NCBI GenBank assembly: GCA_963667175.2 | Contig: CAXXXF010000013.1 | Coordinates: 32,001-96,000, forward strand | Length of the DNA: 64,000 bases | Source: Candidatus Latescibacterota bacterium | Lineage (GTDB): Bacteria > Latescibacterota > UBA2968 > GCA-2709665 | Reading direction: 5' to 3' | Shown here: piece by piece, positions 23,761 through 49,501 of the stretch | Position numbering within the stretch: position 1 is the first letter of the stretch | Layout of the letters: every line of letters begins with the position of its first letter | Program-made: the position numbers and the translations under genes | Notes under the pieces: model-generated | The model's input: the letters and a program-made list of their open reading frames with translations, nothing else | What the model was told of the DNA's origin: nothing | Databases searched by the model: none

Positions 23761-24699
23761 TCACACTGGGACAGCAACGGTAAAGTTACTGTAGTACTGG
23801 TTTTGTTGGATGCGCTGACTTCGATAGACCTCTTCAATCCCTCGCCTGAAAAGGGATGAGCGGGGTATGGGATCTTTAAAGAGATCGTCGAGGGTCAGCA
23901 GAGATTTCACCGTTCCCAAACTCACCAGAGGTGTCCAGATCGGCCAGACGAAATAAGTCTGTCTCCTACCAACCCGGCGAAATCCCGTGGTTCGTGCTTG
24001 ACTTCCAATCAATACCGTAGGAAACCACCGTAATGCCTCAACCGCCAGACTGTTTGCCGCTAACATGGTGCCTTGTCTTGACTTGCTCGGACTTGGATCG
24101 TGCCAACGCAAGGCATACCGCTGATCTTCAATAGGGTCCCAACGAAGACTGCTATACCCTTTGTCCTGGTAATCCCAAGAATGAAAGAGAGTGCGTTGAA
24201 TGTGATCTATACCAACCTTTTTTCGCATTTCCCTGGCATAGAACGGTAATCCTTGTCCCGCACTGTCTCCGCTACGTACCATCCTGAACTTCGAATCCTG
24301 GAACTGTCCACTCTTATCATCGGGATACAGTTCGGTTCCGAAACCAGAGAAAAAATCGGCATCCCGCCGATCGGCAATGGATGAACTGCGCTGAACATCT
24401 CGCAGTTTTTGCGAAAATTTCTCGGCGTCAAAGGGCATCCTGTTGTCGATATCAAAAGCGGCCATTGAGGATTTCTGCAGCGTCTCCAAGAGTTTTTGCG
24501 AGAATTTCTGCTCATCGTCGTCACAACCCACCAGGGATGGCCTCCAACCGCCTTCTGCTTGTTGCCAGCCAAGGCATATTTCCGGGAATACATCTTGCAA
24601 GACAACCGCAGTGCCAACGGCCGCGAGGAATCCGAGCGGGTTGCTGCCGTCGAGTCCGTTCAGCAGAAGACCTGAAGCTGCTGATTCATTTGCCGTCAT
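23761..24699 (-). CDS. cas8g2: Type I-G large subunit Cas8g2 (Csb3/Cas8u2-like), module X
   Basis: [16 protein letters not shown]-terminus, LRWDPIEDQRYALRW..P, LAVEAL..FP, FVWPIW. GGAGGAG SD; overlaps the cas3 stop. Confidence 0.8.
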   Translation of the reverse strand: MTANESAASGLLLNGLDGSNPLGFLAAVGTAVVLQDVFPEICLGWQQAEGGWRPSLVGCDDDEQKFSQKLLETLQKSSMAAFDIDNRMPFDAEKFSQKLRDVQRSSSIADRRDADFFSGFGTELYPDDKSGQFQDSKFRMVRSGDSAGQGLPFYAREMRKKVGIDHIQRTLFHSWDYQDKGYSSLRWDPIEDQRYALRWHDPSPSKSRQGTMLAANSLAVEALRWFPTVLIGSQARTTGFRRVGRRQTYFVWPIWTPLVSLGTVKSLLTLDDLFKDPIPRSSLFRRGIEEVYRSQRIQQNQYYSNFTVAVPV

Positions 24700-48248: not shown

Positions 48249-49501
48249 TACTCCGAGGGTTGTTCAATTGCCGATAGCTTGCGGCTGCGGCGAATCAGTT
48301 CGATCAGCTTCGGTGCGGGGGTAAGGCGAATGTCACTCGTTTCCCAAGCGATTCCATTCGCTGCTGCGTGCGCTGCCGCCGAGGACAGGATCTCAGTAGC
48401 CGCGCTTCTGTCCAATTCCACAACTTCGCCAGCAGAACCGTCGCGGCTCAATAATTCGAGGCGCGGCGGATGCGCCGGGAGCAGCAGGCATCGGGAACGC
48501 AGGTCCAGGTCGTTTTCGTACTGATAGGCAATTGCAGCGACGCCCAGCCCGGAGACTGCGGTGCGAGCGGCCGTTTCGGCCTTCCTGCTGAATCCCTTGA
48601 AACGCAGACGACGAAGCGCCGCGAAGGAAATGACAGTGGTCTGCGCGGCTTTGGAGATGGTAACGCCGCCTGCCTGGGCATCTATCGAAGGGGGGATGTT
48701 CCCGTGGTTGATCTTGGACGGCTGCCCAGCCTCGCCGCTCTCGCTGCCTCTTGAAGCGTGGACAAGGTTACCCTTCTTGTCTTTCTCGGCTGAATCTGGG
48801 TCGTGAGTCCATACCTCGGCCGGGTCATCGCTGTTAAACACTCGATCCTCTGGCGCAACTTTTTCGATCTGGAGAGGATCGATGCGGCTCCCAACCTTCT
48901 TGCCGACAGCGGCGTCGAAACCGACGATCTCGGAGACGTAAGCCCGTTGGAACTTCGATCCGAGCCCGCCCTTCGGTCCGGTGGAATCCCACATACCGAA
49001 CAGCAGTGAGGTGGGAGAATAGCGGAACAGGTCGGTGGCGTTGCGCGGCGTTGCGTTGGTAATGGCTTGTCCGATATCCGACAAGCGAAACAGCGTTCCA
49101 TTCAACAAGCTGTCTCGGAAGATCGCGTCCGCCAGTCGATGGGGAGCTTCCAACACGGTCAGCTTCTCATAGTCCGTCGCGCCGTCGTCCCGGGTGAAGT
49201 CCACGTAGGGTACGGGGAAAGAAAGCTCGTCTCGCTCCCACCCTTCCAGCAGAGCCAACTCCGCCCGATTTGCTTGCGACGCCACGGAGTCCAGCAGGAC
49301 GGTAAAGGTTGTCTTGTCTCCTTCGCCGACTTGGCGCTCTTCAACGGCATATTTGTGCTCGGGACGTCCGTCAACCGCATAAGTTGGCGGAAAGACCTTG
49401 TCTCCTTCGCCACCCGCAGGTTGTAACGTCATGCGGGACCGCAACGCTACAGCGTCGCCTGCGACGGCGTCAAGCAGCCGATCAAATGTGAGTTGAGGCA
49501 T
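48248..49501 (-). CDS. csb1: Cas7g/Csb1, module Y
   Basis: [62 protein letters not shown]. Confidence 0.93.

Follow-up and report, generated by a model that had tools for sequence, protein, structure and literature searches.

Results and discussion

We describe here a type I-G CRISPR-Cas island in a 64,000-nucleotide stretch of DNA (hereafter the window) from a Candidatus Latescibacterota bacterium (GenBank assembly GCA_963667175.2, contig CAXXXF010000013.1, positions 32,001 to 96,000). With a probability of about 0.75, we read this locus as a composite island made of four pieces of differing ancestry, whose three interference machines are fed by one pool of CRISPR RNA (crRNA). As judged from sequence comparison, the composite architecture as such is demonstrated: it combines a module (Z) with its adaptation genes, a Csx17-type cassette (X) lodged within Z, a further module (C) and a duplicated ATPase block. 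A first-pass annotation of the same DNA had described three complete modules served by one array and one adaptation module, and had implied that these modules stand side by side.

A cassette nested within module Z

All I-G genes of the island lie on the minus strand, as given by open reading frame (ORF) positions, and the interval 23761-49501 spans exactly from the stop of extA to the start of csb1C. In the order of transcription, csb1B (37394-38668) and csb2B (35034-37394) are followed by cas3B (32343-34943), csx17 (30226-32493), csb1A (29106-30314) and csb2A (27624-29102), and then by cas3A (24686-27658) and extA. The longest ORF for extA, which codes for a short Cas8-like protein, covers 23761-24867, but its start is likely to be near 24670 because the family match begins near residue 66.

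Best matches for these genes were compared across 26 I-G loci that belong to 22 further genomes of this phylum. The best matches of csb1B, csb2B, cas3A and extA (77, 82, 75 and 79% amino acid identity, respectively) were all found in one contiguous module of genome G141; cas3A was 75-76% identical to its counterparts in G141 and G122, and csb1B 77% to those in G141 and G097. Nucleotide colinearity with G141 runs from 9959 to 13533 (window 38671-35031) and again from 13548 to 17412 (window 27618-23758). Since G141 is colinear on both sides, a G141-type module is interrupted here by 27619-35030, a 7412-bp insert that we call cassette X. Phylogenies built from 36 Cas3 rows and 35 Csb2 rows were congruent, with support of 100 for each of the following groupings: cas3A and csb2B with G141, G122, G135, G137 and G164a; cas3B and csb2A with loci L044-L051; cas3C and csb2C with G009 and G166. 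The best matches, the colinearity and the congruent trees thus pair csb1B-csb2B with cas3A-extA, which contradicts the side-by-side layout and makes cas3B-csx17-csb1A-csb2A a foreign cassette nested inside Z rather than a tandem module.

A step in GC content coincides with 27619-35030, cassette X having a value of 0.643, while the Z halves have 0.596 and 0.584 and the whole genome 0.595. Upstream, the overlap between the csb2B stop and the former cas3 start (GTGACTGAGTT) has survived at the junction; that start now opens a 33-codon ORF whose own stop overlaps the GTG start of cas3B. At the downstream junction, the first ~9 codons of cas3A have been replaced: its new start is an ATG that lies within the csb2A 3' end, the new codons read MGIHMGQTN..., and the family sequence resumes at ...FAEFF. 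Unmatched filler around the X genes amounts to ~82 nt upstream and ~36 nt downstream. Start/stop overlaps are preserved at both borders of X, and the comparison also covered the native termini of both cas3B and csb2A. With the remnant cas3 ORF on one side and the new cas3A start on the other, the eight genes of Z and X therefore remain intact, co-oriented and closely packed. A palindrome with two 7-nt arms (TGACTGA GTT TCAGTCA on the transcribed strand) lies at the upstream junction (35024-35040), its left arm belonging to the old sequence and its right arm to the insert.

One I-G set per locus is indeed the norm, as had been noted: of 168 genomes surveyed in the phylum, 25 carried csb1, and adjacent multiple copies were present only in the genome studied here (three copies) and in G009 (two). 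Dispersed or partial extra csb1 genes were seen in G077, G103 and G164.

Relatives and origin of cassette X

Relatives of X were sought by a profile scan of species-representative genomes. An alignment-based profile returned nine loci, all in metagenome-assembled genomes (Gammaproteobacteria, Pseudomonadales, Acidobacteria, two Bryobacterales, two Vicinamibacterales, Gemmatimonadetes and Nannocystaceae), and the same scan with the single Csx17 sequence found no loci. The order cas3-csx17-csb1-csb2 is kept in all nine, as far as the contigs reach. Amino acid identities in the eight closer loci are 69-78% for cas3, 60-67% for csx17, 71-77% for csb1 and 72-76% for csb2; in the ninth, L052, they fall to 40-59% for the first three genes, csb2 being cut by a contig end. 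Database searches with csx17 gave 92 homologues, the best being 60-77% identical over 94% of its length. At the nucleotide level, X is 71-80% identical to its relatives over 34948-27655, that is, over the coding block alone. Within the phylum, the nearest Csx17-type relatives of the X genes are only 25-35% identical. Taken at the level of sequence, X was probably acquired horizontally, from another phylum.

Among the seven X-type loci whose downstream flanks are complete, six lack cas1, cas2 and any array over ~7-10 kb; such array-less loci neighbour housekeeping genes or genes of other defence systems. All five of these genomes that were tested nevertheless carry large arrays at other places, with repeats that end in GGCCCCATTGAAGC; this repeat tail was counted 84-572 times per genome, against 0-3 for a reversed-pattern control. 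Members of the X clade are thus cassettes for interference alone, which as a rule operate away from the array that they use. X itself has the make-up of such a stand-alone Csx17-type cassette, its four genes being contiguous and all their proteins falling within the one clade of L044-L051. A survey of archaea counts 11 stand-alone type I interference modules against 106 integral systems (PMC3973734).

The csb2/cas3 junction in other genomes

The Z-type modules of G102 and G097 are split at the same place (G141 position 13543-13547) by 8.1-8.2 kb of DNA, located at 13531-21767 of L021+L063 and 14862-22959 of L064+L025, respectively. Both inserts code for a Cmr (III-B-like) module composed of a leading protein of 604 or 613 residues, a RAMP (repeat-associated mysterious protein)/Cmr1, Cas10/Cmr2, Cmr3 and further RAMPs. 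They begin after the sixth cas3 codon, with a junction sequence common to the two genomes, and the insert of the window begins about 7 nt earlier. The cas3 gene of G097 appears to be split into two ORFs. Overall, three of the nine Z-clade loci are interrupted (those of G141, G122, G124, G135, G137 and G164a are contiguous), apparently by two independent events.

Nesting in three of nine loci suggests a permissive or preferred site for gaining interference modules; a hot spot cannot be distinguished here from the survivorship of insertions at the only harmless site. A bolder proposal, which we consider rather improbable, is that the csb2/cas3 overlap of the long-Csb2 lineage acts as a docking site where array-less cassettes come to use the resident crRNAs, as processed by Csb2, and the resident Cas4/1-Cas2. 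If so, the junction would offer a route of cassette capture by which effectors are stacked under anti-CRISPR pressure, in which the recurrent AAA-ATPase/PD-(D/E)XK genes would serve as accessory factors or as handles for recombination.

Gene families and integrity of the three modules

Family assignments were made with NCBIfam, Pfam and PADLOC, and all of them lie above curated cut-offs. The three Cas3g proteins scored 729, 626 and 768 bits with TIGR02621 (NCBIfam cut-off 400), the three Csb2 proteins, which are Cas5-Cas6 fusions, 99, 293 and 304 bits with TIGR02165 (cut-off 45), and the three Csb1/Cas7g proteins 60.6, 76.4 and 78.3 bits with TIGR02570 (cut-off 38), also passing the cut-off of PF09617. 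The single Csx17 is narrowly above its threshold (TIGR04113, 155 bits, cut-off 150). ExtA and ExtC, with 199.5 and 298.5 bits, respectively, against a cut-off of 65, belong to NF049934, which is named the 'Cas3-extension family', and correspond in PADLOC to PDLC01514, Cas8g, the CAS-I-U large subunit. The single Cas4g/Cas1g scored 738 bits with NF049935 (cut-off 560). The locus therefore holds Cas3g with a C-terminal HD domain (matches at residues 795-921, 661-865 and 735-922), Csb2, Csb1/Cas7g, Cas8g, Cas4-Cas1 and Cas2 next to an array, as type I-G requires; this name reportedly stems from the 2020 nomenclature of Makarova. In type I-G, Csb2 is further expected to cleave the repeat so that an 8-nt handle is left, and Cascade with Cas3 to destroy DNA flanked by a protospacer adjacent motif; of these traits, the sequence shows the ATTGAAGC end of the repeat and its hairpin. 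To our knowledge, type I-G is the least studied of the type I subtypes.

The presence of three intact copies each of cas3, csb1, csb2 and cas8 was confirmed: all 12 interference genes are full length and free of internal stops, with lengths that agree with those of orthologues. Each of the three Cas3 proteins retains the HD residues as well as helicase motifs I (PTxxGKTA) and II. The DEVQ of cas3B is shared by seven of the eight Csx17-type rows (cas3B of the window counted) in a 27-row Cas3 alignment, the remaining one, G118, having DEPQ. The paralogues, which had been called visibly divergent, are indeed deeply so, with identities of 35% for cas3A/C, 27% for cas3B against cas3A or cas3C, 45% for csb1B/C, 33-36% for csb2B/C and 25% for extA/C; at 25-45%, they are not recent duplicates. 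PADLOC likewise places cas3A and cas3C in PDLC01769 and cas3B in PDLC01770, csb2B and csb2C in PDLC01777 and csb2A in PDLC01778. As for the Cas8 proteins, the one Csx17 stood, but the term 'Cas8g2-like' for the two short genes proved loose. It likely referred to the Cas8u2/Csb3 (GSU0052) family, whose profile PDLC00996 had no match in extA or extC at E<=0.001, PDLC01514 being their only match; the middle gene of module D in G009 matches PDLC00996 with 119.8 bits.

The short Cas8-like protein has 1556 homologues of about 305 residues, and no relative of it was found by sequence in the PDB. Its NCBI label, 'Cas3-extension', is explained by the fixed place of the gene after cas3. An AlphaFold model of ExtC, built on a 19-row alignment (predicted local distance difference test score 70.5, predicted template modelling score 0.79), was compared to known structures with Foldseek. 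The best match was the 649-residue Cas8g chain of 8b2x (E 4.7e-5), followed by a chain of a type I-A Cascade, the CRISPR-associated complex for antiviral defence (7tr6_C, E 2.8e-3). Because the deposited Cas8g model of 8b2x is itself a prediction docked in a low-resolution map (PMC9638904), the first of these matches carries less weight than one to an experimentally built model would. On this modelling, we read the extA/extC family as a short Cas8. At ~300 residues against 649 for the T. sulfidiphilus chain, the protein of modules C and Z seems, judged by length, to be a Cas8-like protein without the C-terminal Cas11-like half.

Csb2B, with 786 residues, carries an insertion of ~320 residues (aa ~205-525, window 35820-36782) that sits between its Cas5-like and Cas6-like parts; the C-terminal part of its model gave Cas6 matches. 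The insertion scored 19.3 bits with PF00156, below the cut-off of 26.3, and its sequence matched PDB entries at E 0.003. Foldseek returned adenine and orotate phosphoribosyltransferases (APRT, OPRT), ComF and ShosT at E ~1e-4, with template modelling scores of only 0.3-0.5. A VDDFxGQGGT stretch is nearly invariant. The insertion is present in at least 396 database proteins, with 65-91% identity among the matches listed. It may be a phosphoribosyltransferase-like domain; no link between Csb2 and this fold was found in the open-access literature searched.

Module C and the adaptation genes

Module C (42864-49501) is transcribed ahead of the other pieces as csb1C (48248-49501), csb2C (46554-48248), cas3C (43772-46561) and extC (42864-43775), and is followed by a 1.3-kb repeat-rich spacer. 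Its orthologues in G009, a sister species with a complete single-contig genome, are 88-97% identical at the amino acid level, and module C is inherited within the genus. In G009, module C is followed by a Geobacter-type cas3-csb3-csb1-csb2 set, an ATPase gene, cas2 (99% identity), cas4/cas1 and 29 copies of the identical repeat. Module C genes have ratios of nonsynonymous to synonymous substitution (dN/dS) of 0.16-0.29 between the two genomes, and cas2 and cas4/cas1 of 0.02-0.09 (0.09 for cas4/cas1). Synonymous divergence from G009 is 0.064 for cas3C and 0.17-0.39 for its neighbours, which hints at a recent exchange of cas3C between the two species.

The adaptation end of the island contains cas2 (19537-19827, 96 residues; Pfam 62.9 bits, PADLOC Cas2g), a cas4/cas1 fusion of 602 residues (17714-19522), the sole copy in the window, a leader (about 17532-17713) and the adjoining array (16241-17531), in which 17 spacers of 35-40 nt separate 18 identical copies of a 36-nt repeat. 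Cas4/cas1 is 95% identical to that of G009, 82% to that of G015 and 75% to that of G102. G015, of the same family, has only one interference module, which is Csx17-type but from a different clade and is accompanied by cas2 and cas4/cas1, and its repeat differs from that of the window at three positions. G102, of the same class, holds csb1-csb2, the Cmr module and then cas3-short cas8-ATPases-cas2-cas4/1.

On the transcribed strand, the repeat reads ATTTCC-hairpin-GGCCTCATTGAAGC. The array was oriented on the minus strand from the repeat 3' end, ATTGAAGC, and from a stem change in G015 that is G.U-compatible on that strand only. A common repeat frame, (A/G/C)TTTCC-GC hairpin-GGCCTCATTGAAG(C/T), was found at loci of every module lineage: Z-type (G137, G102), Csx17-type (G129, G146, L051, G015) and Csb3-type (G107, G126, G009). 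Spacers 9 and 10, at neighbouring positions (16868-16906 and 16943-16981), are identical. Spacers had no match in their own genome beyond 14-19 nt, and prefixes of the two newest (of 17 spacers) had none in viral contigs.

The assembly comprises 18 contigs and 5.52 Mb, with 95% completeness and 4.75% estimated contamination. Nowhere else in it does the window repeat occur, and tblastn revealed no I-G genes beyond the window. A k-mer scan gave five candidate periodic stretches, two of which are CRISPR arrays: that of the window and one on another contig (C2:268909-270961), with 29 repeats unrelated in sequence to the window repeat. The latter adjoins cas6/cmx6, cas3, cas8a1/cmx1, cas7, cas5/cmx5 and an I-MYXAN cas4-cas1, the whole system covering C2:256800-270961, so that the check for other arrays recommended in the first-pass annotation turned up only an I-MYXAN array with its own cas genes. 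The claim of one array and repeat type, one cas4-cas1 and one intact cas2 holds likewise, the only addition being a 19-codon cas2 fragment (38796-38853). As the assembly is 95% complete, a further array could sit in the missing part of the genome. Immediately upstream of the I-MYXAN cas6 is a pair of IS110-family transposase genes that are identical to each other.

Proposed model and alternatives

The first piece of the island is a Z-plus-adaptation unit with the order csb1-csb2-cas3-short cas8-ATPases-cas2-cas4/1-array, an order also kept in G102, where cas2 again precedes cas4/1. The second, X, is located in the first few codons of the Z cas3, at the overlap of the csb2 stop and the cas3 start. 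Module C, a second module of short-Cas8 type, forms the upstream piece, and the ~4-kb ATPase-cas2' duplicate between C and Z the last one, in a layout that fits recombination through this repeat. We propose that a minus-strand array transcript would be cut at the repeats by at least one of the three Csb2 proteins, and that the resulting crRNAs would load three different Cascade-Cas3 machines, with the single Cas4/1-Cas2 supplying spacers for all of them. We infer a shared crRNA pool because the repeats of every module lineage share both flanks, and because in G009 and G015 this adaptation module and repeat are combined with different interference modules. Transfer of crRNA across systems is known from H. 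ochraceum, where Csb2 gave crRNA to a Cmr complex in a reconstituted system (bioRxiv 10.1101/2023.06.23.546230). The likely benefit would be a backup against escape mutants or anti-CRISPRs, and less a gain of new protospacer adjacent motif (PAM) space. In the G. sulfurreducens system, one Cas4/Cas1 selects the PAM of every spacer (PMC6547450); any additional PAM range should thus be of use chiefly when targets mutate to escape. PAM reading by I-G is described as an open question (PMC9638904).

Several observations weigh against this composite island with one crRNA pool. The hairpin of the window repeat is GCGATC...GATCGC where most relatives have GGGG...CCCC, which bears on the specificity of csb2A. 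Purifying selection was seen for module C and the adaptation genes only. The trees are FastTree trees with local support only and several long branches. In public DNA runs, the best share of sampled words was 0.08-0.16, and the contigs assembled from them are relatives that bridge no junction; no public RNA run was listed as containing the window stretch, and the junction strings, including the upstream one, were not found in Joint Genome Institute metagenome contigs.

In an alternative reading, the layout is genuine, yet no more than one or two of the modules function and the rest are silent passengers or in decay, for example because the insertion uncoupled Z or because X cannot use this hairpin. 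Cas3A is indeed no longer coupled directly to csb2B and lacks the ~9 codons with which it natively began, and the hairpin is unlike that of most X-type and Z-type relatives. However, all 12 interference genes are full length with their catalytic motifs, the Z-type locus of G102 has a near-identical repeat with the same GCGATC stem, and X-type cassettes normally work away from arrays; we therefore hold this reading to be possible but on the unlikely side. It is quite improbable that half-modules reassort, such that [csb1-csb2] and [cas3-cas8] pairs form hybrid effectors, for example a Z backbone with Cas3B-Csx17. Both orders of the two gene pairs exist in nature, and the Csb2-Cas7-crRNA backbone of T. 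sulfidiphilus forms without Cas8g, through which Cas3 joins (PMC9638904), but counterparts by descent are only 25-45% identical across the modules here.

A chimeric assembly, with X or module C joined by the assembler from another organism or strain, could account for the deviating GC content of X and for the presence of its nearest relatives in other phyla, and the 18 contigs, the 4.75% contamination estimate, metagenome contigs 95-97% identical to parts of X and a ~4-kb repeat of 85-97% identity flanking the Z block leave some room for it. After 7.4 kb, however, the path returns to within 14 nt of the point where it left Z, which is the signature of an insertion and not of a chimeric join. 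Neither junction has a repeat, start/stop overlaps are kept on both sides, the complete single contig of G009 also stacks two I-G modules before the same adaptation genes, and two complete or near-complete genomes hold another module at the same junction, so that an artefact is very improbable. We give least credence of all to three in-register tandem modules that arose by duplication and divergence or by serial addition, with csb1A-csb2A-cas3A-extA as one module and csb1B-csb2B-cas3B-csx17 as another. The regular alternation of [csb1-csb2] and [cas3-cas8] pairs along the strand invites this reading, and csb1-csb2-cas3-short cas8 is the order of module C and of many relatives. It is already contradicted, however, by partners in descent that cross the borders of the positional modules, by the order cas3-csx17-csb1-csb2 in G015 as in all nine X-related loci, and by the GC step and the remnant cas3 start at the borders of X.

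Comparison with known systems

The I-G system of T. sulfidiphilus (PMC9638904, 8b2x) resembles X in having a Cas3 with a C-terminal HD domain, Csx17, Csb1/Cas7 and Csb2, and its 36-nt repeat, which gives an 8-nt 5' handle, has the length of the repeat found here; its locus has one interference set against three in the window. A search of PDB chains with csx17 gave no match at the sequence level. In G. sulfurreducens (I-U/I-G; PMC6547450), cas3-cas8u2-cas7-cas5/6 is accompanied by cas4/1-cas2, the four-gene set was sufficient in E. coli, a Cas4-Cas1 fusion selects a TTN PAM and the repeat ends in AGC. The fusion and the AGC end recur here, but the gene order is permuted to csb1-csb2-cas3-cas8, and the GSU0052/Csb3 family is seen in the second module of G009.

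As proposed for the window, one repeat family and adaptation module serve several interference modules in Pyrococcus furiosus (PMC4666368) and in the I-F/III-B system of Marinomonas (PMC5576922). These two and H. ochraceum combine different types or subtypes, whereas three sets of one subtype occur here, one of them nested in the operon of another. The archaeal survey (PMC3973734) describes conserved adaptation modules with changing interference modules, as is also seen in the genome studied here and in G009, G015 and G102; the exchanges it reports are swaps of whole cassettes, and insertion at a fixed junction within an operon was not found in its accessible text. That several effectors may share an array and adaptation module, and that interference cassettes are exchanged, is thus already established (PMC3973734, PMC4666368, PMC5576922). 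Neither three I-G sets in one locus nor a cassette nested at the csb2/cas3 overlap was found in the open-access literature searched.

Three natural I-G effectors, 25-45% identical and equipped with two kinds of Cas8, are thus available in one locus, where they probably draw on one crRNA pool. It is well suited to questions of cross-compatibility between repeats and Csb2, PAM reading by the two Cas8 forms, mixing of subunits and anti-CRISPR resistance through stacking. Its relatives indicate that I-G cassettes of four genes travel from phylum to phylum with no array attached, and the island provides a natural case of how immune modules may stack and share guide RNAs.

Duplicated block and neighbouring features

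Between extA and cas2 lie a 1.25-kb spacer, a full AAA-ATPase_like gene with a PDDEXK_9 domain (20958-22508, 516 residues; PF09820, PF08011) and a truncated copy of its N-terminal ~365 residues (19828-20931), the open frame of which continues into that of cas2. A truncated copy precedes cas2 in G102 too. A second copy of this region (38796-42740) separates modules C and Z and contains, in the order of transcription, a full ATPase gene (39983-41533), a truncated copy and the first 19 codons of cas2, with parts of the intergenic sequence. Positions 19770-22555 and 38796-41580 are 90% identical, and further pieces extend the likeness to 23742 and 42740 (about 85-97% overall at the nucleotide level). 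The boundary of the duplicate falls within cas2, hence the stump that precedes csb1B; the alignment fits an origin by insertion or by unequal recombination through the ATPase-cas2 block. An ATPase-Cas2 fusion protein was considered and rejected, as cas2 has its own ATG and matches the free-standing 96-residue Cas2 of G009, and as the ATPase of the second copy ends in another frame.

Six of the eight AAA-ATPase_like and PDDEXK_9 genes of the genome are in the window (19828-22508, 38820-41533, 53227-54222 and 57015-58562). Such genes stand beside I-G loci in other genomes as well (one of one in G107, three of four in G009, one of four in G146, one of ten in G141 and two of 20 in G144). An AAA-ATPase_like gene occurs within 10 kb of csb1 in 13 of the 22 other genomes, which are related and not independent samples. 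Its possible roles are those of an accessory gene or a recombination handle.

No Rfam family matched the window at gathering thresholds, and scans of the window gave one promoter-like site against 3.7 expected and eight terminator-like sites against 15.9 expected. Upstream of module C, the interval 49502-53009 is repeat-rich and non-coding, with an element of 230-300 nt present three times (50408-50637, 51154-51383 and 52769-53009). The interval also contains elements that resemble repetitive extragenic palindromic sequences and are dispersed over many contigs, and a weak nucleotide match connects these to part of the G141 csb2. Lastly, the flanks of the island hold a small nucleotidyltransferase gene (52371-52775) and a Gp49-like/HTH_37 toxin-antitoxin-like pair (62643-63589).

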